Below, piece by piece: positions 30,513-41,191 of a DNA stretch of 64,000 nucleotides. How positions within the stretch are numbered: the stretch's first letter is position 1; the number at the start of each line of letters is the position of its first letter. The DNA lies in NCBI GenBank assembly GCA_040755995.1, contig JBFMAF010000032.1, forward strand, positions 161,306 through 225,305, written 5' to 3'. The position numbers were made by a program, and so were the translations under genes. Under the pieces are notes generated by a model. The model saw only the letters and a program-made list of their open reading frames with translations. It ran no database searches and had not been told where the DNA came from. The DNA is from Acidobacteriota bacterium (lineage in GTDB: Bacteria; Acidobacteriota; CAIWXX01).

Positions 30513-30728
30513 TCGCATGCAAGGCGGCCTCGGCGTGGGGCTGATGCCCTGAGTTCAGGGGTGGACAGTGTCGATGATCACAATCCTCAAAGAACCTACT
30601 ACAGGCGTATACAAAGCCAGTCACGCCGGTTGCACTAAGTTGAGACGACCGCACCACTCGTCACGAGGCGGCCAGTGCGGTGGTATATAATCAAGGCAGG
30701 CTAGATCACTCGTGCAGGAGATAGGAGG

Positions 30729-31091
30729 ATGGGAGCAACACAGGTAACAGTAACGGTTCGCAATCCGGCAGACCCGGAGAAGGCGTGGGAGGGTCTTTTC
30801 CTGGTAGATACGGGCGCGGTCGATTCACTTGTCCCGGGCAAGGCGCTTCGAAGCATCGGGCTGGCTCCGAAAGCGAAGCGCACGTTTGAGCTCGCAGATG
30901 GGTCAGAGGTAAAGCTGGACATCACCACGGGGGATTTGGAGTTCATGGGAGAGGTCGTAGGTTCCACCCTCATCTTTGGCGGCGACGATGCCGAACCAAT
31001 CCTCGGTGTGACGGCACTTGAATCCGTCGGCATCGAGGTAGACCCCCGCAGCCAGCGGCTCAAGCGACTTCCTGCAGCACGGCTCAAGTAG
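30729..31091 (+). CDS. Clan AA (retropepsin-like) aspartyl protease
   Basis: LVDTGA active-site motif and ILGVTALE; AGGAGG RBS. Confidence 0.85.
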   Translation: MGATQVTVTVRNPADPEKAWEGLFLVDTGAVDSLVPGKALRSIGLAPKAKRTFELADGSEVKLDITTGDLEFMGEVVGSTLIFGGDDAEPILGVTALESVGIEVDPRSQRLKRLPAARLK

Positions 31092-31092
31092 A

Positions 31093-31128
31093 GTCTCAAC
31101 GCGAAGCTGAAGACCGCACGCGTTGGGC
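31093..31128 (+). mobile_element. Truncated attC-like site
   Basis: Directly after the stop codon: GTCTCAAC...AGCTGAAGACCGCACGCGTTGGGC (AAC...GTTRRRY), shorter than a functional attC. Confidence 0.35.
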
Positions 31129-31145
31129 GTCCCCCTATCCGAGCC

Positions 31146-31511
31146 ATGCGACTGCACTACGGGCTTGAGGACGCAGGCTGGGCAACGGTGACCCTCCAGT
31201 GTGAGGACCAGTTCGTCAGCATGACCGCTTCGTACTTTCGTGACTCCCTGCGGGATCTTGCCTCCGCTGCTCGTGCCCTTGTTGGCGGTGCAAGCGAAGC
31301 AAGGGTTATCTTCATGAGCGAGCCGGGCGAGCACGAGCTCATCATGCGCCAGACCTCGCTCGGCTTCCGCGCCTACCGTATCCTGTCTCCGGAAGCCTGG
31401 GGTGGCTTCGTGGCTGAGGTCACATTTGGAGGCTGGGTTGTGATCGCCCTCGCCTGGTGGCGGTCCAGCGTCTTCCACCGCTCCCTTGCAGTCGATACCG
31501 GGGCCGACTGA
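31146..31511 (+). CDS. Hypothetical protein, possibly a chimera of two cassette genes
   Basis: Soluble N-half (GWATV...SYFRDSL...EPGEH) joined abruptly to a hydrophobic C-half. Confidence 0.45.
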   Translation: MRLHYGLEDAGWATVTLQCEDQFVSMTASYFRDSLRDLASAARALVGGASEARVIFMSEPGEHELIMRQTSLGFRAYRILSPEAWGGFVAEVTFGGWVVIALAWWRSSVFHRSLAVDTGAD

Positions 31512-31542
31512 CCGGGCGTTCAAGCCGACACGGCGGGCGGCC
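31506..31542 (+). mobile_element. Degenerate attC-like left arm
   Basis: GACTGACCGGGCGTTCAAGCCGAC overlaps the stop codon and resembles the aadA-type attC start TCTAACAATTCGTTCAAGCCGAC. Confidence 0.45.
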
Positions 31543-31748
31543 TGCTTACCGAGCCTCACCGGGGAGTGCGACAGCCTTGCCAGCCAACCTACGCCCTTGA
31601 GGACACCCGATGAATGTGGTTGAATCCGATCAGGTGATTCTCAGTGCGATCAGTCGGCTATCGATGGGCAGCCGGAGCTGCTGCAACTACGGTGGCTGTT
31701 GGCCTGACAGGGTTCGCTCCGGCCGGAGATTCAGCGTAGCAGTACGAA

Positions 31749-32285
31749 GTGCTCCAGGCGATCGGGTCGCGCTGCCAGGATGGAGACGAAGACGCCTGCC
31801 GTAGCCTTGCCTTGGTCGCTCGGGATAGCGAAGAACCGGATGCCAGGTGGGACGCGGTGGAGTACTTGCGCGCTGAGCAGGTGCTGGCCCAGGTTGCGAT
31901 GGAGGAGTCTCTTCCGGGCATCCGAGAAGCGGCCTTGGCCAAGCTGTCAGGCCTCATTCTCGACACCTTCTGGCGCCGGCTAAACGGACTGCCCCTTGAA
32001 GTGGAAAAGCAACTCGCGCCCTCCGTAGCGTACTGGCGGCAGCAGACCACCCCTGACCCGGCACGGTGCCCGAGCTGCAAGCGGCGCAGTGAGATGACGT
32101 TGAGCCGGTCCAGGCAGGAGCTGGACGACCAAGAGGGAGCGGTCCACTACGGACGCTGCTGTCGCGAAGGGACGATCTGGGGCTCGAACGTGGATCTAGG
32201 CTGGTTCACTCCCGAAGGAGAACAGCTCGAAGGGCTCCGTAGGGCTCTTGCCGGCTCCTGGGATCCGTGCAACCGAAAGGACTGA
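31749..32285 (+). CDS. Hypothetical protein (HEAT-like helices plus CPSC zinc knuckle), possibly 5'-truncated
   Basis: ORF track; ARWDAVEYL...IREAALAKL; CPSC and CC residues. Confidence 0.4.
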   Translation: MLQAIGSRCQDGDEDACRSLALVARDSEEPDARWDAVEYLRAEQVLAQVAMEESLPGIREAALAKLSGLILDTFWRRLNGLPLEVEKQLAPSVAYWRQQTTPDPARCPSCKRRSEMTLSRSRQELDDQEGAVHYGRCCREGTIWGSNVDLGWFTPEGEQLEGLRRALAGSWDPCNRKD

Positions 32286-32355
32286 GCTGTCTTGATCCCG
32301 ATTGTGGGATTGTGGTTGTGGTGCATTCTGATGCCAAATGGTGTATACTTGTGAC

Positions 32356-32613
32356 ATGGCCATGATTGAAAAAGCGATCCGCCAGAGCGTCTCGCTCCCT
32401 TCTCCACTGGCGAAGCGGGTGAAGGCCCTGGCAAGGCGTCGAAAAGTCAGTTCCAATCGGATACTTGTTGAACTTGTCGAAACGGGGCTGCGAACAAAAG
32501 AAGACGAGAAGCGCAGATTCTTCGAATTGGCAGATAGGCTAAGCAAGTCAAGCGACGTGCGGGAACAGCGAGAACTGAAAGAACACCTTGCCCGAATGAC
32601 TTTCGGGGAATGA
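32356..32613 (+). CDS. RHH-type putative antitoxin
   Basis: IRQSVSLPSPLAKRVKALA...SSNRILVELVETGL; abuts the next small gene. Confidence 0.7.
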   Translation: MAMIEKAIRQSVSLPSPLAKRVKALARRRKVSSNRILVELVETGLRTKEDEKRRFFELADRLSKSSDVREQRELKEHLARMTFGE

Positions 32614-32856
32614 GTGCCGAAGATCCAGTGGACCGATCTGCCTCCCACTCTGCGCGATCACCTCTTTGAGCGGCTTCGAGAGCGTCGAATCACCGCCGAG
32701 GATCTGTATCAGCTGAAACTCCGGCGAGAATCTGAGCCCGACGCCCCGAATGGTGATTGGTACAAGGATTTCGGATCATTCAAGGTCTGTGGCAGGGGGA
32801 AATATCCCAAGACGTTCCTTCTTCGAGGGCAACCCGCCAAGGGCCAGGAACTGTGA
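32614..32856 (+). CDS. Small basic protein, putative toxin
   Basis: 80 aa, starts at the base after the RHH stop; WYKDFGSFKVCG motif. Confidence 0.6.
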   Translation: MPKIQWTDLPPTLRDHLFERLRERRITAEDLYQLKLRRESEPDAPNGDWYKDFGSFKVCGRGKYPKTFLLRGQPAKGQEL

Positions 32857-33020
32857 ATCGCGTCGTCTAGATCTGACAGTCACAAGTTCGTTTGCACGAA
32901 GTGCCGGCCGAATGCACTTCGAGAATCCGCGGTCGCACTCGAAACGCGGCGAAAGGGCATAGGGCCGAGTTGCGATCGGCATGAGGCCTCGCGTAAAATT
33001 CATGGCAGCGGGGACGCGAA

Positions 33021-33290
33021 ATGGACCTGAAGTCTCGGTACTCAAAGGATGAGTTTGCCCGACGCGGCGACGCGCTATACGAGCAGGAGATCGGTCCGCA
33101 AGTAGAAGCTAGGAACCAGGGCAAGTTCGTTGCCATTGATATCGATAGCGGTGCCTACGAGATCGATGCGGACGAACTGGCTGCATCCGACCGACTCCTT
33201 GCACGCAAACCCGAGGCGCAGGTGTGGCTGCGGAGGATCGGCTCCAGGCACGTGCGTCACTTCGGTCCGCGGCAACGCCGCGTCGCATGA
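33021..33290 (+). CDS. Small hypothetical protein (DUF5678-like) coupled to an aspartyl protease
   Basis: RRGDALYE...GKFVAIDIDSGAY; ATGA overlap with the protease. Confidence 0.7.
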   Translation: MDLKSRYSKDEFARRGDALYEQEIGPQVEARNQGKFVAIDIDSGAYEIDADELAASDRLLARKPEAQVWLRRIGSRHVRHFGPRQRRVA

Positions 33291-33658
33291 TCACGGGTTT
33301 CGTTACTCAGGATCTCGAAGCCATCGTGCGCGTGACCGTCCACGATCGTGACGGAAGAGGCCACGAGATGGAGTCGGTCGTGGATACCGGCTTCGATGGC
33401 TCCTTGACTCTCCCGGCCTCGGTCATCGCTTTGTTGGGGCTGCGCTGGTGTCGACGTGGCCGACCCCTGCTGGCAGACGGCCGTGAGAGCGTCTGCGACA
33501 TCTTCGAAGCAACCATCAGCTGGGATGGAAGTACTCGTCGCATTCCTGTGGACGCGGCAGAAACCGCACCCCTGATCGGCATGTCCCTTCTGCACGGCTA
33601 CGAGCTGATCATACGGATCGTGGATGGTGGCGACGTGACAATCACCGCGCTCCCATGA
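33287..33658 (+). CDS. Clan AA aspartyl protease (AF_0612-like)
   Basis: MITGFV...VVDTGFDGSLTLP...PLIGMSLL. Confidence 0.85.
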   Translation: MITGFVTQDLEAIVRVTVHDRDGRGHEMESVVDTGFDGSLTLPASVIALLGLRWCRRGRPLLADGRESVCDIFEATISWDGSTRRIPVDAAETAPLIGMSLLHGYELIIRIVDGGDVTITALP

Positions 33659-33736
33659 GGCGGAGACGCCTAGAGCGGATTCTGCCATGACGAACGAGTC
33701 GAGTGTGACAATACCAGCCGGACAAGACAGCGATCC

Positions 33737-34141: not shown

Positions 34142-37100
34142 CTACGGCCCACGGGCGTTCCGCGGCGGGCGCGGGAACTTCAGGTAGGGCACGATCACGT
34201 CGTTCTTGAAGGCGCCGGTGCCGTCGTAGGTCAGCGTCACTACCGGCACGCCGGTTGCGCGGCGGATCTCGTTTGCCATCGCTTCGGTCACCAGCGACGG
34301 GCAGCAGAACACGGGGTTGGTCTGCACGAACAGCGCCACGTCCGGGTGCGCCTTGAGAATGTGCGAGATCTTCAGAAGATTGTCGAACGACTCGCCTCCG
34401 TGCTCCAGGCGCACGTGGAAGCGATCGAGGATCGCCTCGGTCTCGGCGTCGCTCGGCAGGCTCAGCGGCGGCAGATACTTCTCGTAGCGCTGCCGGCAGC
34501 GCTTCTCGACCGCGCCGATTGCGGCGAGCAACAGGCGGTTCTTCGCCAGGTCACCGTATCGCCTCTCGATGACCCACCGCCTGAAATACGCCTTCGAGAT
34601 GATGCGCAGGTAGTGGCTGTAAGGCGTGGTGATCACCTGCCCGCCGGCCGCCTCGATCGTCTCGATGAGGTTCTGGTTCATCACATCGTTGTCGCGAACG
34701 TACAGGTCGCCGAATATCGCCACCTTGGGACGCGTTCCGTCATGGCGAGGGATCGCGTCGAAGAGGTCCATCGCCCGCTCCAGCGCATCCTCCTTCGAGA
34801 GCCCGTTCTCGAGCGCCTGAGCAAACATCGCAAGGGCCTTGCTGGTCGCAGCGGTCGTAGTTCCTGGTGTCTTCTCATAGGGCCGGATGGCGCAGCCGAT
34901 GCGGCGGAGCAGCCCGCCGAAGAGGTACGCGAAGTAGGTGTTTACGGCTGCCACCAGCGATATCTCCATGTGTGAGAGATCGCCGCGATACACGCTCGCC
35001 TTCTCCATCCCCTCTCCGTGCGCCTCGAGAAGGGTCTTGATGTAGTACGGGTACATCCGAAGACCGCAGGCGACACGACCGCGCGCGATCCATAGTGCCG
35101 TTCGCGCCGGGTCGAGGTCGTGCTTCCGGACGTAGTCGATGAACTCCTGCGTCATCGCATTGATCGGGATGCACTGGCCCGAGTTCTGCCGCATGCTGCG
35201 CTGGATCGTCAGGGGATCTTCCTCGAGCACCCGCGCGTCCACACCGGCACGCCGCAGGTTGGCGACCAGCAGCGGAGCGGTCAGGGGGTCCCAGTTGGGG
35301 TAGAGCAGCGTCATCCCGTCGAGACGATTCGCCAGTCGGGGATTGACAGGGAGGGCGCGGGGGGGTGATGGGCGAGTGCCGACCAGCGCGGGGCGGCTCG
35401 ACTGCGCCGCATAGTGGTTCGCAAACGCCCGCACAGCAGCTTCGATCCGGGTCTCGTAGCCTGCGTTCGAGTCGTGCTCGTCAATCTGCAGGATCAGGTA
35501 GGGCTTGCCGTGAGAGTCGAGAATGCGGCAGAAGTACTCGCTCAGGAAAGAGTCTGGCGCGCACTTGAACGATGTGACGAGCACGGGATAGAGCTGCTCG
35601 GATCGGGCACAGGTCTGCGCCGTCTCGAGGATGCGCGCGCCGTAGCTCCAGTTGACCGCGTCCAACAACGGATCGATCTCTGCGCGCGACTCGGGACTCG
35701 ACGGAATCATATCCAGGAAAAAGGCCTTGACGCCGAGCGCCGAGAAGAGGTCCGGAATGCTCTTGTTCATGTGCGGCGAGAGCACCACATATGGGCGGCC
35801 GCTCAGCACGACACAGAAGCCCTCCGCTGCGCGCACTTCTCGTTGTACCACGCCGGCCAGCCTGCGCTGCCCCTCTTGCTTGAACCTGAGTGCCTGCCCG
35901 TAGGCCCGTACAACACCATCGAGCTCCACCTGGACGCCTCGGATCCGTTGCAGAGCCTGATGGAGCTCCCGGCAGATCTGCTTCCGCGACCTCCAGTGGT
36001 CGAGCAGCGGCAGGAGACACCTTGAACGAACTTCTGCGTCGTCGATCATGGCCACCAGCGATGGCGCGTATTGCGTGTAGTAGCAGTAGTCGCGGAGGCG
36101 CGCACGGTCGTGCGGCTGCCGCACGGCGTGGAGGACCACCGGTACGAACACGTAGTCTGCGCGCGACGCGAGATGATGAACGTGGCCGTGCAGCGCCGTG
36201 ATGGGCGCGCAGAATTCGGCCCCGGCCAGCCGCCGGCCCAGCTTCACCCCATCGCGACAGTCCTCGCTGGTCACCGTACGGATGTCGAGCGCACCGAAGA
36301 ACCGCCTCCACATCGCCAGGTCCTCGAAAAGATGCAACGCCGCGGGAATCCCGACCGTGGGGCCGGACGCTGGCCTGGGTCCGGGCAGCTGAAAGCACTT
36401 CTTGTGCTCGCGAATCAGATCGAATCCGCTTCGATTGGCGCTCACGTGGTGATGCACGTCGTAGTCGCGCCCGCACATGAAGCCGAACGCAACCGCTTCG
36501 CCGTGCACATCGGCCACACGGATCCGACATCTGTTGGTGCACAGCTCGCACACCTCCGCCCGGATCGGGATCTCTACGCGATGCAGGCCCAATCCCCGGA
36601 AGCGGCTCTCGCCCCTGTGATCGCGTGCCACGAGGATGGCTGCGCCGATGGCGCCGCTGAGATGGCAGTACCGAGAGACCAGGATCTCCCGGCCCAGATC
36701 TTGTTCGAATGCCGCCACGAGCGCCCTGTTCTTCGCCGTGGCCCCCTGGAAACAGACTCGCTCGCCGATGGCCGGCCGGTTCGCCACCTTGTGGAGGTAG
36801 TTCTCGCGCACGGAGAAAAGCACGGCGGCGAGGATCTCCTCGACGGAATGGCCGAGGCTCATCAGGTGATTGATGTCACGCTCCATGAACACAGCGCACC
36901 GATCGCTTGCGAGCGGCGCCCTCACCCCCTCGGCGCGGCGCGCGACCTCGCCGAGCGGCACACCCAGCCGCGCCGCCTGCTCCTCGATGAAGCTCCCCGT
37001 GCCGGCAGCGCACACGGTGTTCATCTGCGCGAAGGTGACGCGGCCGTCGCGCAGCGTCGTGAACTTCGCGTCCTGACCGCCGATCTCGATGATCGTATCG

Positions 37101-38377
37101 ACGCGAGGGTCGAGCTCGCAGGCCGCTCGAGCGTGCGCCGTGATCTCGTCCACGATCAAGTCGGCGCCGATGAGCTTCCCGATGAACTTGCGGCCCGATC
37201 CGGTCGTGCTGACGGCCGCGATCGAGAACGACGCGAGCTCGGGTGTAGATTCGATCGCCTCGAAGATTGCCTGTGTTGCCGCGAGAGGCCGGCCAGCAGT
37301 GCGAGTGTAGTATCCGGAGAGAACTCGGCCCTGTGCATCGACCAGCGCCGCCTTCGTGCTGGTCGAACCGACGTCGAGACCCAGGTATCTGGGCGCGGGT
37401 GCCTCGCGCGGGCTCTCGACGAAGATGTCGACTTCGACCGGGTTGGCGGGTCCGGTATGCGCCGAGACGTGGATCCGGCGCGGGTGATCTTCGAAATCTG
37501 GGAAACGAGATCTGACGAGCTTCAGGGGCTCGTAGAAGGACTGCTTCGACTGAGCGGTGGTGGTGAGAAGATCCCGTGCTTCCAGGCGCCGCAAGCGCGA
37601 GGTCCCGAATTCGTCGAGGTAGGCCAGGGCCGCTCCGATGGCGCCGTACAGGTGCGATCGCTCGCCCACTGTCAGGGGCTGCGCGAGAAGTTGCTCGAGG
37701 TGTCTGCCGACGGCGCGGTTGCGCGAGACTCCGCCGGCGAACACGATCGGCTCACGGGCCGTCGCTCCGCAGAACAGCGCGCCCGCGATGTTTCGCGCCA
37801 GCCCCTGGCAAAGCCCATCGCAGATCTCCTTGATGGAGTAGCCCTCTTGCTGAGCGTGGATCAGGTCGGTCTTGGCGAAGACGGAGCAGCGCGAGGCGAT
37901 CGGCGGGATCGGGCCTGCATTGAGAAGAGCGATGTCGCTCAGCTCGGCGCTGCTGGATAGCCCGAGGCGCAGGGCCTGCAGATCGAGGAAGCTTCCGGTG
38001 CCGGCCGCGCAGCTCGTATTGCCTCGCATGCCCTCGTAGTGCCCATCGGCATCGAATGCGACCAGGCCGAATTTCTCGCCACCGACAACGAGCAGCGACC
38101 CGGTGGGCGAGTGTAGGCGTTTGGCCGCAGTGATGTACGCAACCACTGTGTCGACCTGGTGCGCGTCCCTGAGCGCGGGGGCGGCGGCCGTCGTTTGCGC
38201 GACGGCCCCGAGGCTCGCGACAGGCAGCCCCGACAGCATCTCTCGGAGTACAGGGCCGACCGTCCCCCGGTGAAATCGGTAGCTCGTCCACAGAACCCGT
38301 CCTTCTCGGTCCACCACCGCAATTGAGATCGCCACCGATCCGATATCAACTCCACAGATGCCGTCGTTGTCTTTCAT
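34142..38377 (-). CDS. 2-hydroxyacyl-CoA dehydratase activator-like multidomain protein (two BcrAD/BadFG ATPase domains plus DUF2229-like region)
   Basis: GVDIGS and GLDVGSTSTK, two CAAGTGSF, RCSVF/RCAVF Fe-S Cys, EIGGQD, SFKCAPD, QIDEH. Confidence 0.9.
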   Translation of the reverse strand: MKDNDGICGVDIGSVAISIAVVDREGRVLWTSYRFHRGTVGPVLREMLSGLPVASLGAVAQTTAAAPALRDAHQVDTVVAYITAAKRLHSPTGSLLVVGGEKFGLVAFDADGHYEGMRGNTSCAAGTGSFLDLQALRLGLSSSAELSDIALLNAGPIPPIASRCSVFAKTDLIHAQQEGYSIKEICDGLCQGLARNIAGALFCGATAREPIVFAGGVSRNRAVGRHLEQLLAQPLTVGERSHLYGAIGAALAYLDEFGTSRLRRLEARDLLTTTAQSKQSFYEPLKLVRSRFPDFEDHPRRIHVSAHTGPANPVEVDIFVESPREAPAPRYLGLDVGSTSTKAALVDAQGRVLSGYYTRTAGRPLAATQAIFEAIESTPELASFSIAAVSTTGSGRKFIGKLIGADLIVDEITAHARAACELDPRVDTIIEIGGQDAKFTTLRDGRVTFAQMNTVCAAGTGSFIEEQAARLGVPLGEVARRAEGVRAPLASDRCAVFMERDINHLMSLGHSVEEILAAVLFSVRENYLHKVANRPAIGERVCFQGATAKNRALVAAFEQDLGREILVSRYCHLSGAIGAAILVARDHRGESRFRGLGLHRVEIPIRAEVCELCTNRCRIRVADVHGEAVAFGFMCGRDYDVHHHVSANRSGFDLIREHKKCFQLPGPRPASGPTVGIPAALHLFEDLAMWRRFFGALDIRTVTSEDCRDGVKLGRRLAGAEFCAPITALHGHVHHLASRADYVFVPVVLHAVRQPHDRARLRDYCYYTQYAPSLVAMIDDAEVRSRCLLPLLDHWRSRKQICRELHQALQRIRGVQVELDGVVRAYGQALRFKQEGQRRLAGVVQREVRAAEGFCVVLSGRPYVVLSPHMNKSIPDLFSALGVKAFFLDMIPSSPESRAEIDPLLDAVNWSYGARILETAQTCARSEQLYPVLVTSFKCAPDSFLSEYFCRILDSHGKPYLILQIDEHDSNAGYETRIEAAVRAFANHYAAQSSRPALVGTRPSPPRALPVNPRLANRLDGMTLLYPNWDPLTAPLLVANLRRAGVDARVLEEDPLTIQRSMRQNSGQCIPINAMTQEFIDYVRKHDLDPARTALWIARGRVACGLRMYPYYIKTLLEAHGEGMEKASVYRGDLSHMEISLVAAVNTYFAYLFGGLLRRIGCAIRPYEKTPGTTTAATSKALAMFAQALENGLSKEDALERAMDLFDAIPRHDGTRPKVAIFGDLYVRDNDVMNQNLIETIEAAGGQVITTPYSHYLRIISKAYFRRWVIERRYGDLAKNRLLLAAIGAVEKRCRQRYEKYLPPLSLPSDAETEAILDRFHVRLEHGGESFDNLLKISHILKAHPDVALFVQTNPVFCCPSLVTEAMANEIRRATGVPVVTLTYDGTGAFKNDVIVPYLKFPRPPRNARGP

Positions 38378-38426: not shown

Positions 38427-38999
38427 TCAGGGCTCATCCAGTCGACGTCGTGGCCGGTCATGCTTCAGTTGCGCGTAGCTGCGTTCGAGGTAGAACTCGT
38501 GGGGCACGACCAGCGGCGTATAGTCGAGGGGCAGGCGCAAGTTCGGCTCGACGTACCAGTCGGCGGCAGCGGCCTGCACCACGTGCGCGGCGTCGAGGTT
38601 CACGAGCTCCCACGCGATGATGCGCTGGAGCCTGCAGAGCGCCTCGATGACAGTGTCCCCCGAAGACGTCCGCGTCCAGAGGCAGACGAAGCCGTTGCGA
38701 GGATCGACGTTCGGGTGGAAGATTGGGTCAGTCAGGTAGGCTTCGGTGGGCATTGCTGGGTAGAACCGCGGGAACAACAGTCTCACATCGTGTTCGTGTG
38801 AGAGCGCGCACGGTGGACCCAGGCTCGTGATGCCGCACGTGCGGCGGAGGGAGACTCGAACGGCGTCCGCGGACTGCTCCGCCCCACTGAAAGCCAGAGT
38901 CTCCGGATTGAGATCGATCAGGCGCCAAAGCAGCTCGCGTTCGCTCCGCAATCGCCGCCCGCGTACGCTCAGGGCCGAGGGCCGGTCGGGATCAACCAT
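38427..38999 (-). CDS. Ubiquitin-conjugating (E2/UBC-fold) enzyme
   Basis: RRLRSE helix 1; FPRFYPAMP; PIFHPNVDPRNGFVCL (HPN motif plus catalytic Cys at 38682-38684). Confidence 0.88.
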   Translation of the reverse strand: MVDPDRPSALSVRGRRLRSERELLWRLIDLNPETLAFSGAEQSADAVRVSLRRTCGITSLGPPCALSHEHDVRLLFPRFYPAMPTEAYLTDPIFHPNVDPRNGFVCLWTRTSSGDTVIEALCRLQRIIAWELVNLDAAHVVQAAAADWYVEPNLRLPLDYTPLVVPHEFYLERSYAQLKHDRPRRRLDEP

Positions 39000-39252
39000 T
39001 GATGGCGATCGTCGATACCCTCAGGACATCGTTCGGGCGGACACCTTGCTCCGGCAGCGCCCGGCCGAACTCGAGCATCTGCCCGCTCCAGATCACCTGC
39101 GGCTCTCCGTCCCCGCGCAGCACGTCGCCGCGTTCGCGGAGCTCATAAAGGATCTCGCCGATCACCGTCTCGAGAGCCTCGTTCTCGTCGATGTCCACGT
39201 TGTAACGCTTCTCGCCGCCTATCGTGTCGAAGTAGATCTGGTACTTGGGCAT
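38992..39252 (-). CDS. Ubiquitin-like (beta-grasp, YukD/EsaB-like) protein ending in Gly
   Basis: 86 aa; ...GQMLEFGRALPEQGVRPNDVLRVSTIAING*; GAGGGA RBS; overlaps the E2 start by 8 bp. Confidence 0.8.
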   Translation of the reverse strand: MPKYQIYFDTIGGEKRYNVDIDENEALETVIGEILYELRERGDVLRGDGEPQVIWSGQMLEFGRALPEQGVRPNDVLRVSTIAING

Positions 39253-39259
39253 GCGTCCC

Positions 39260-40009
39260 TCACAGGCGATATCGAGCCTGCCGGCGTTCCGCGCGGCCGG
39301 GCCGTTCACCGCCGTCATCACGGATGATATAGGGCTCGAGCTGTGGAGGCAAGTCGTCGATGACCCAGTTGCACCGGCTGCAGGCGCCGTTGTTGAAGTC
39401 CCAGCAGCCCTTGCACTGCGGGCGGCCGCATTGCCCGCACGCGCGTAGGTCCACCTCGGCGGCCACGGCGAGACAGATCTGGCAGCGGCCGGCGTGCACG
39501 CGCGGGCCCAATTGAGCCTCCCACCAGCGGCTGTCTGGGCTGAATATCGGGACGCGATTCTCGGCGCAGAGCCGGCAGCGGCACTGCTCGAACACCCAGC
39601 ACTCCCGATCGCAGACCCGCAGCCCGCACCGCGGGCAGTCGAAGATGAGGTCGCGGTCGAACCCGCGGTTGCACAATGCGCACCGCGGCCTCTGGATCAT
39701 GAACAGCACCACGATGCCCGCCGTCGCCGCGGCGATCAAAGGCGATGTCCACGCCAGGTGCATCACGCTCGCCGGATCGCCAAGGTATCGCACGCCCAGC
39801 CCCGCGAGCGACGACAGCGCCGCAAGCAGCATCGGTGACCACCATCGCTGTAGCCCGAGGTGGAAGAGCCGAGCCAGAGCGAATACGAGGAGACCGATTG
39901 CCGCCGCAGCGCCGAAGGCCGCGCGCGGATCGAGGTATGATCCGAGGAGTTGGAGGATCCCCAGCAGGAACCAGCAAGCTACAAGAGTCGCGGGCTTTCT
40001 GATGCTCAC
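39260..40009 (-). CDS. Membrane protein with two tandem C8 zinc fingers (candidate RING-like E3)
   Basis: About four TM helices, then two copies of C-x2-C-x11-C-x2-C-x4-C-x2/3-C-W-x6-C-x2-C. Confidence 0.72.
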   Translation of the reverse strand: MSIRKPATLVACWFLLGILQLLGSYLDPRAAFGAAAAIGLLVFALARLFHLGLQRWWSPMLLAALSSLAGLGVRYLGDPASVMHLAWTSPLIAAATAGIVVLFMIQRPRCALCNRGFDRDLIFDCPRCGLRVCDRECWVFEQCRCRLCAENRVPIFSPDSRWWEAQLGPRVHAGRCQICLAVAAEVDLRACGQCGRPQCKGCWDFNNGACSRCNWVIDDLPPQLEPYIIRDDGGERPGRAERRQARYRL

Positions 40010-40018
40010 GAGCGCATC

Positions 40019-41191
40019 TTACCAGAAACGGAACGTGTGGAGGTGTCGATCGGGGAGGTCTAGCTGTGCCAACGTCGAAGCGGCCCACGCGGAGGTCCGT
40101 TCGACCTCGCGGATGACCTGCTCCGGGCGTATGTTCACAGACGCGCAGCCCGGGCAGACTCCCGATTCCCGCAGAGCAGCGAGCCTGCGCATGGGCGCCC
40201 AGGTGTGGCCGCAGGCGGCGCACCGTGCGCGCGTGCAGATGGGCCAGTCGAGCACGAGCGCGGCGCGCCTGGCGGACGTCGCTTCAGCGGACTGTATGAG
40301 ATCCACCACGGTTACCCGATCGGAGGGACCCGGAGATGGTAGCATGGTGTCGGCGGCGTCATGAAACGGGCAGAAGGAGCTGAGCGCCAGACCGATCGTC
40401 TCCATCTTCGGCTGCGCCTGACTCAGGTCCACTTCCGCGCTCCACGCGACACTCGGCGGGTCTCGGCGTCCCTCGTAGAGCCACCGAAGACCGATCTCGA
40501 CTTGCATGGCGCCGACGATGGCGGACATTGTGGGGGTGCTGGGATAGGCCGGTGCATGCGGGCCGGCAGGCTCGATCCAGCACGGGTGCGATTCCGATTC
40601 CCACCGAGTCAGCAATTCCCGCCGGCGCCCTTCGGTCAGAAGACAGCAGAAGCAGGCCGCGTCCCTGCCCGGGAATACCGTCACGCGGCCGCGCGAGTAG
40701 CTGCTGCCGCCGAGTCCGCCGTCTACCTGCGGCACGTTCAGCTTGGTGACGATGTAGGCTATCTCGAGGCGCGCGAGATCGCTGTCGACGCAGCCGAACA
40801 AGAGATGCGCCTCGGCGATGTCCTGAAAGCCCACGCCGGCAACCTCGCGCGGAATCGCCGTCCATCGAGTATCCGGGAAGAGCCGCTCAGCGGACTCAAC
40901 GATGGCCAGCGCCTTGTTGCGGCCGATCGCATCTTGCGCACGGAAAAACAGCGAGCGCGTAAGGTTGCTCGGCTCGACGGCGTCGTGATCGATGACGAGC
41001 ACTCGCGCCGCACCCAGCAGCCCCAGCGCTCTCACCACTTCGTTGCCGAGCGCCCCGGCGCCGACGACGACGGCGTTCAGCTGCGAGACACGCTGAGGAG
41101 CGAAGATGGTGCCGTCGAGACGCGAGTAGTCGACCGCGGGAGCTTGAATCGATTCACCAGGGGACTCTGGCTGCATTTGGGCCGGCGACAC
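40019..41191 (-). CDS. ThiF/E1-like ubiquitin-activating enzyme with C-terminal zinc finger
   Basis: VGAGALGNE, DHDAVEPSNLTRS, DSDLAR, ACFCC, candidate catalytic Cys in SHPCW, CPFH, CAAC...CPGC. No rhodanese domain. Confidence 0.9.
   Translation of the reverse strand: MSPAQMQPESPGESIQAPAVDYSRLDGTIFAPQRVSQLNAVVVGAGALGNEVVRALGLLGAARVLVIDHDAVEPSNLTRSLFFRAQDAIGRNKALAIVESAERLFPDTRWTAIPREVAGVGFQDIAEAHLLFGCVDSDLARLEIAYIVTKLNVPQVDGGLGGSSYSRGRVTVFPGRDAACFCCLLTEGRRRELLTRWESESHPCWIEPAGPHAPAYPSTPTMSAIVGAMQVEIGLRWLYEGRRDPPSVAWSAEVDLSQAQPKMETIGLALSSFCPFHDAADTMLPSPGPSDRVTVVDLIQSAEATSARRAALVLDWPICTRARCAACGHTWAPMRRLAALRESGVCPGCASVNIRPEQVIREVERTSAWAASTLAQLDLPDRHLHTFRFW

Follow-up and report, generated by a model that had tools for sequence, protein, structure and literature searches.

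The window analyzed here, 64,000 nucleotides of an Acidobacteriota bacterium (GenBank assembly GCA_040755995.1, contig JBFMAF010000032.1, positions 161,306 to 225,305 of the forward strand), carries on its minus strand, at 38427..41191, a four-gene operon for an E1-like enzyme, a membrane protein with two Cys-rich fingers, a ubiquitin-like protein (Ubl), and an E2. This operon tracks a divergent type VI secretion system (T6SS); it is not self-contained and is not evidently a defense system. A sequence-only reading had taken it for a complete minimal E1/E2/E3/Ubl pathway at the membrane. The E1/E2/Ubl cascade in that description is well supported, both by sequence and by structure, but its self-sufficiency is not. 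We lean, by a small measure and on comparison of sequences, to the view that the cascade would attach Ubl to TM-FHA, a membrane protein of the T6SS cluster, and so build or switch the membrane platform of the secretion system.

Results

Used as a single query, the finger protein found nothing in the genomes scanned; an alignment of finger proteins gave 67 related loci, 63 of them titled as Acidobacteriota and one (L046) in a Granulicella mallensis strain. Three loci in records titled Verrucomicrobia or Janthinobacterium (L048, L054, L058) resemble those of Acidobacteriaceae, and the records are possibly mislabeled or mis-binned. The sequence-only reading had staked itself on the genes being found together in other genomes: all four occur together, in the same order and on the same strand, in 64 of the 67 loci, and the three incomplete loci end at contig ends. 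Counted singly, Ubl is present in 67, E2 in 66, and E1 in 65. Conservation of the operon in 67 loci rules out artifactual or shadow ORFs.

The recurring neighbors of the operon are genes for TM-FHA, a vWA membrane protein, TssB, TssC, TssG, TssK, ClpV, VgrG, a Ser/Thr kinase, and PP2C. Among these, profile matches to T6SS components were obtained for TssC (8.5e-20; PF17541), TssG, TssK, VgrG, and the ClpB-type ATPase, and weakly for TssB; Hcp-, TssE-, and TssF-like genes also recur but are named by position or resemblance only, without a significant T6SS profile match. A T6SS structural gene lies within 8 kb of the operon in 55 of the 67 loci (58 when TM-FHA or vWA is counted), and a kinase gene is in the flank of 47. 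Of the nine loci with no T6SS nearby, eight belong to genomes with TssC elsewhere, and one to a genome without a match. In a sample of 401 genomes of the phylum, the 7 with Ubl are also the 7 with the T6SS TssC, and among 301 genomes of another class the two again share the same 6. These counts describe patterns rather than statistics, as related genomes are not independent. Two other genes near the operon, a downstream CoA-activase gene and an upstream yjbQ, were considered as parts of it and excluded, neither being among the recurring neighbors. The former, 50 bp downstream of E2 (window 34142-38377, minus strand), encodes a 1411-aa double CoA-activase/DUF2229 protein.

This association could also arise if the operon were an independent tagging or anti-phage system that merely shares a mobile island with the T6SS, a view that we regard as very unlikely. 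Its patchy distribution (7 of 401 genomes) would fit, as would its separation from the T6SS in the source genome, and Bil, Cap2, and predicted relatives serve defense, according to passages of PMC10557695. Against this, PADLOC matches only the generic E1 domain, the co-occurrence holds even where operon and T6SS are unlinked, and, as described below, Ubl is fused in frame to a gene of the T6SS cluster, with loss of E1 and E2.

The T6SS itself appears unusual at the membrane. In a search of five genomes that left TssJ outside its scope, TssL and TssM were not found in four (controls positive); the fifth carries TssL and TssM side by side, probably as part of a second T6SS. TssA was found in one of the five. 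JAB-family genes lie elsewhere in four of the five genomes, the source genome giving only a sub-cut-off match, and none was assigned to the Ubl system. The T6SS of the source genome is on contig C28 (115581-about 128900; L068 and L069) and comprises TM-FHA, vWA, TssB, TssC, Hcp, TssE, TssF, TssG, TssK, and ClpV. The usual site of the Ubl operon, upstream of this cluster, is taken up by a small gene pair of toxin-antitoxin type in appearance and by a region with a Cas3-like helicase. Two orphan VgrG loci were also noted (L070, 6268-12712; L071, 8078-12886): beside one of them lie two conserved genes without names (313/244 aa) and a gene for a DUF1080-FHA protein, and beside the second lie genes for a peptidoglycan-binding protein and for a protein resembling C39 peptidases.

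Natural fusions of Ubl bear on its partner. A profile search recovered fusions that join Ubl with E2, TM-FHA, the finger protein, or kinases, and 62 metagenome loci supplied context. In variant A (8 metagenome loci), the order is E1, finger protein, and Ubl::E2 with a GG or GA junction. A JAB peptidase (Prok-JAB, 5e-12) is the next gene in all four variant A loci that extend beyond E2, followed by TM-FHA, vWA, and TssK in three and by ImpE and TssA in L082; as a query, this JAB found no other match among 139 loci. Its presence beside Ubl::E2 precursor fusions argues that a free Gly is needed. In variant B (18 metagenome loci, nearly one lineage), the finger protein is followed by Ubl::TM-FHA and vWA and, in longer contigs, by T6SS genes. 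Profiles found neither E1 nor E2 in any of these 18 loci. Six genomes, 80-95% complete, carry variant B; E2 was not found in any of the six (control positive in 4/4), and the five tested for E1 gave only generic ThiF matches. Variant B thus retains the T6SS core while E1 and E2 are gone. In a TM-FHA tree of 38 rows (a subset), seven fusions fall on one side of one branch (97/89), adjoining variant A, and with a midpoint root the loss of E1 and E2 is derived.

TM-FHA, encoded by the first gene of the T6SS cluster, spans the membrane several times and carries a degenerate, weak-scoring FHA domain. Its K205, in a conserved loop motif, is the sole invariant Lys in 72 of 72 rows linked to E1/E2 (39-100% identical to the copy of the source genome, near-duplicates included, with nine fusion loci set apart). 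Of nine conserved columns around K205, five fusion rows keep only 1-4, whereas elsewhere the same rows keep 38-42 of 53. The residue is Arg in L121, L130, and L141-L143, and Arg or absent in the fusions beyond four that keep Lys. Because the Ubl::TM-FHA fusions go with loss of E2 and with decay of the K205 motif, TM-FHA is the candidate acceptor that we favor.

Several features of the fusions stand apart from this argument. The FHA domain of Ubl::TM-FHA (L121, 9346-10617, and relatives) shows a circular permutation that spans the membrane domain; in variant B, its last strands sit behind Ubl and before the helices. P0085, P0090, P0109, P0056, and P0074 join Ubl to the finger protein, a DUF4062-kinase, a kinase-TPR-like protein, and other proteins. 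A search for longer TM-FHA proteins returned P0112, 609 aa, with a partial TM-FHA (67% identity over 38%) and a vWA domain.

The ORF coordinates and translations of the window bear out the four tightly coupled minus-strand ORFs, the spacing, and the motifs first seen in the sequence alone. The order is E1, finger protein, Ubl, and E2, with 9 bp between E1 and finger protein, 7 bp between finger protein and Ubl, and an 8-bp overlap of Ubl and E2. The GC content of the operon is similar to that of the remainder of the window; a run of small genes at 30700-33700, with aspartyl-protease-like and toxin-antitoxin-like cassettes, is slightly lower. A promoter/terminator scan of the operon gave a signal at chance level, and one RNA run (0.06 share) yielded four short contigs that showed nothing on expression. 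A search of the genome for rRNA motifs gave no match.

The E1 (40019..41191, minus strand; 390 aa) has a ThiF-family adenylation domain (Pfam ThiF, E 3.9e-26); its Atlas record begins at residue 6. The residues invariant among the aligned rows are G44, G46, K93, R141, C183, C204, C274, H277, C324, and C346. The candidate catalytic cysteine, Cys204 (codon at 40580..40582, minus strand), is in the crossover loop and is present in all 64 rows that have a residue there; we take its role to be catalytic from its position after the CxxC motif, as in MoeB/E1 enzymes. C180/C183 and C274/H277 form a structural Zn site, and the C-terminal domain carries a Zn ribbon. That domain is possibly a ubiquitin-fold, E2-binding domain, given a weak likeness to E2_bind/UAE_UbL clusters (score 0.76-0.78).

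The E2 (38427..38999, minus strand; 190 aa) is of the eukaryote-like UBC type, with an HPN motif and Cys106, and matches Pfam UQ_con above the cut-off (E 1.5e-6). H95, P96, N97, and C106 are present in 67 of 67 rows. Eukaryote-type E2s match its profile best, the closest solved relatives being of the UBE2L6/UBE2L3 type (E 8e-7), and the matches listed (60 of 130) include no E2 from Bil, Bub, or Cap2. The eukaryote-like active site initially recognized by eye is thereby confirmed. NCBIfam and PADLOC gave no name to the E2, the Ubl, or the finger protein.

The Ubl (38992..39252, minus strand) is an 86-aa beta-grasp protein with an exposed C-terminal Gly and no pro-peptide, as judged from its model, a fold search, and the alignment. 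Its length is 86 aa in 66 of the 67 loci, at 64-78% identity; Gly directly precedes the stop codon in all 67, and the ending is Asn-Gly in 65. Lys3, invariant in 48 of 48 aligned Ubls, is a possible chain-forming or self-conjugation site. A Pfam scan of the window Ubl gave nothing relevant, and a sequence search of its profile against the PDB gave no significant match. The model (pLDDT 91.8), however, has a beta-grasp fold whose top Foldseek match is ubiquitin (E 5.8e-5, probability 1.0), so that the fold on which the initial proposal depended is the one found. Since all 67 Ubls end in Gly and the E2 Cys and HPN and the E1 Cys204 are invariant, the conjugation chemistry appears intact. The operon is thus real and conserved and, to judge from these residues, probably catalytically active.

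Two alternatives turn on the nature of the Ubl and E1. First, the genes could serve sulfur transfer or cofactor biosynthesis in the manner of ThiS/ThiF, as a ThiF-family E1 and a small, single-Gly beta-grasp protein might suggest. We find this scarcely credible and reject it: the E2 has an intact Cys, the top fold matches are ubiquitin, no biosynthetic gene recurs nearby, and the NCBIfam ThiF/MoeB scores of the E1 are all far under the cut-off. Second, Ubl could act mainly without covalent attachment, binding TM-FHA as YukD does its partners, with E1 and E2 serving only to sequester, prime, or autoconjugate it. TmoB and YukD clusters are the language-model look-alikes of Ubl (YukD-like score 0.93), EccD5 appears lower in the Foldseek list, the fusion lineage does without a free Gly, and, in passages of PMC12637312, YukD acts non-covalently on FHA domains. 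Nevertheless, an invariant terminal Gly, invariant cysteines, and a JAB that goes with precursor fusions are hard to explain without transfer, and we consider non-covalent action decidedly unlikely.

The finger protein (39260..40009, minus strand; 249 aa) is an E3 or adaptor candidate. Its model begins with four N-terminal membrane helices; after them come the Cys-rich domains, a tandem of two C8 treble-clef fingers whose 16 cysteines are all invariant in 39 of 39 homologues. Finger 1 (C110-C148; 39566..39682, minus strand) has a FYVE-like topology; in the whole-protein model it aligns with FYVE/RIM/Slp fingers at VIA Z 5.2-6.2 and rmsd 1.8-2.6 over 46-47 residues. Finger 2 (C176-C213; 39371..39484, minus strand) is borderline Prok-RING_2 or RING-like: residues 176-217 match Prok-RING_2 at E 0.025 (15.2 bits versus a cut-off of 22.4), and in the same model the finger aligns with the Deltex1 RING (Z 4.3, rmsd 3.5) and the RNF38 RING (Z 4.1, rmsd 4.6, 66 aligned). 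The weak Prok-RING_2 match recurs (E<=0.1) in 37 of 39 homologues and is above the cut-off in two of four genomes. Foldseek with the whole protein gave nothing at E<=0.001, and matches to the helical part took up the VIA lists. Conservation at L112, F123, L147, and V153 reaches 87-94 of the 98 rows linked to E2; five listed rows among the 23 that lack E2 vary at these positions, with all cysteines kept. L112 and L147 occupy positions at which RINGs contact E2, and the relaxation of the finger 1 hydrophobic residues in the lineage without E2 counts in favor of the proposed cascade. A predicted complex of E2 with the finger domains scored 0.17 and was counted neither for nor against contact. The E3 role assigned earlier thus holds in part: finger 2 is weakly RING-like, but finger 1 is FYVE-like, and the protein persists where E2 is gone. 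The best reading is that it is an E3 or adaptor that also plays a structural role.

Discussion

The conserved residues, together with what is known of these families, suggest how the cascade may work. First, E1 would adenylate the C-terminal Gly of Ubl and load Ubl on Cys204. Second, E2 would take Ubl onto Cys106. Third, the finger protein would bring E2 to the inner membrane. Fourth, as the fusions and the motif decay suggest, TM-FHA would be the main acceptor, probably at or near K205. Finally, and most conjecturally, the attached Ubl may serve as a handle for assembling or activating a membrane platform of finger protein, TM-FHA, and vWA, and this platform may replace the TssL/TssM anchor that the T6SS apparently lacks. 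A broader history, which we offer tentatively and think somewhat doubtful, is that a T6SS clade swapped its TssJLM anchor for such a platform, activated by covalent Ubl through a eukaryote-like E1-E2-E3 cascade, and that one lineage then hard-wired Ubl::TM-FHA and dropped E1 and E2.

A number of observations weigh against this account. Regarding the T6SS, besides the non-independence of the genomes compared, the source genome has its operon and its T6SS on separate contigs, and the operon-bearing genome of L061 (G673, completeness unstated) has no TssC match. Regarding the anchor, TssJ was outside the search, and TssN was found in none of the five genomes by a search without any positive control. 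Regarding the acceptor, Ubl is fused to the finger protein, E2, and kinases as well, and a fusion signifies partnership, not covalent linkage; the fusion and the loss of E2 may reflect a single event; and K205 is kept in the fusions P0068, P0082, L144, and L145, so that it may be structural rather than the acceptor. Regarding the E3, finger 1 is not RING-like, and the finger protein retains all 16 Cys in the lineage without E2.

Several of these points would also suit a cascade that is dedicated to the T6SS but has another target, such as the finger protein, the kinase, TssK or the baseplate, the sheath (for ClpV recycling), or cargo, with TM-FHA a non-covalent reader of Ubl. The joining of Ubl with the finger protein in P0085 and with kinases in P0109 and P0090, the kinase flanking 47 of 67 loci, the presence of ClpV in the cluster, and the retention of K205 in several fusions are all in keeping with this. 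We nonetheless think it rather unlikely, as E1 and E2 are lost where TM-FHA is fused to Ubl, with the T6SS core remaining, and one fixed fusion would not substitute for tagging of cargo or sheath. Attachment to TM-FHA is thus the reading that we carry forward.

The operon does not belong to Bil, Bub, or Cap2, as gene order, residue types, and architecture attest; the sequence-only reading was right in this respect. It shares with Bil a Ubl and Cys-dependent E1 and E2. According to passages of PMC10557695, however, Bil has the order Ubl-E2-DUB-E1, an IAD-containing E1, a CEHH-type E2, no E3, and an anti-phage function, whereas the order here is E1-finger-Ubl-E2, with a 390-aa, single-ThiF E1, an HPN-type E2, and no DUB. 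Type I Bub, like variant A, starts from a Ubl-E2 precursor that JAB cleaves (in part of PMC11601596), but proceeds through Tyr (E1) and Ser (E2) oxyesters and has BubE (the same part; also part of PMC11601603); here Cys204 of E1 and Cys106 of E2 are invariant, no BubE was seen, and the finger protein is in the membrane. The E1 of the operon shares the ThiF-type domain of CBASS Cap2 (PADLOC E 2e-10, over the ThiF stretch only), but here E1 and E2 are separate ORFs, Ubl is free, and no CD-NTase is among the recurring neighbors.

Among secretion machines, the closest parallels are of two kinds. In the T7SSb, as portions of PMC12637312 describe it, the small Ubl YukD stabilizes the FHA domains of YukB and recruits the pseudokinase YukC, organizing membrane FHA and kinase-fold proteins; that system is a T7SS, and no E1 or E2 is described in those portions. 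By analogy, this precedent shows how an FHA-bound Ubl can organize the membrane platform of a secretion machine. The PpkA-Fha-PppA pathway and T6SSiii likewise place FHA, kinase, and PP2C beside TssB/C/E/F/G/K, Hcp, VgrG, and ClpV, but the partner FHA here is membrane-embedded and weak-scoring, and TssL/TssM were not found in four of five genomes. The terms ubiquitin, Acidobacter, and VWA have 0 occurrences in a 2026 review of T6SS accessory factors (PMC13584744).

In 2011, Burroughs, Iyer, and Aravind reportedly described prokaryotic E1-E2-RING-Ubl(-JAB) operons with Acidobacteria among the carriers, and their acidobacterium is said to be Granulicella mallensis. Compared by description, those operons, with Prok-RING_2 (PF14445), share with ours the E1, a eukaryote-like E2, a treble-clef finger with membrane helices, and Ubl; they differ from ours in that ours has tandem C8 fingers, a FYVE-like finger 1, and a canonical form without JAB. 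A passage of PMC4197634, citing Burroughs 2011, states that Acidobacteria carry related E1-E2-finger-Ubl operons. The gene set is therefore probably already described, contrary to the initial suggestion that it might be undescribed. Our literature search, which covered titles and the papers cited, found no T6SS-linked conjugation system, TM-FHA fusion, or E1/E2-less variant, although Burroughs 2011 or its supplements may show such neighbors. The operon type is thus known, and the T6SS coupling and the candidate substrate may be the part that is new.

Such operons are regarded as selfish elements in part of PMC3417536. Passages of PMC10557695 call bacterial RING-type E3 operons rare and uncharacterized. 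In the literature covered, characterized bacterial E1/E2 systems serve phage defense or have no known target. If our account is correct, a role in a T6SS would be a new job for bacterial ubiquitin-like chemistry; and if the broader history holds as well, ubiquitination in bacteria would here have a defined substrate within the cell and serve machine assembly rather than defense. The family supplies a candidate for the substrate and another for the acceptor lysine, and Hcp secretion offers an easy read-out in a soil genus that can be cultured, so that the function of bacterial E1-E2-E3 operons becomes directly testable. The finding also points to a type of T6SS with a different membrane anchor, and it bears on the use of eukaryote-like E2/E3 chemistry prior to eukaryotes.

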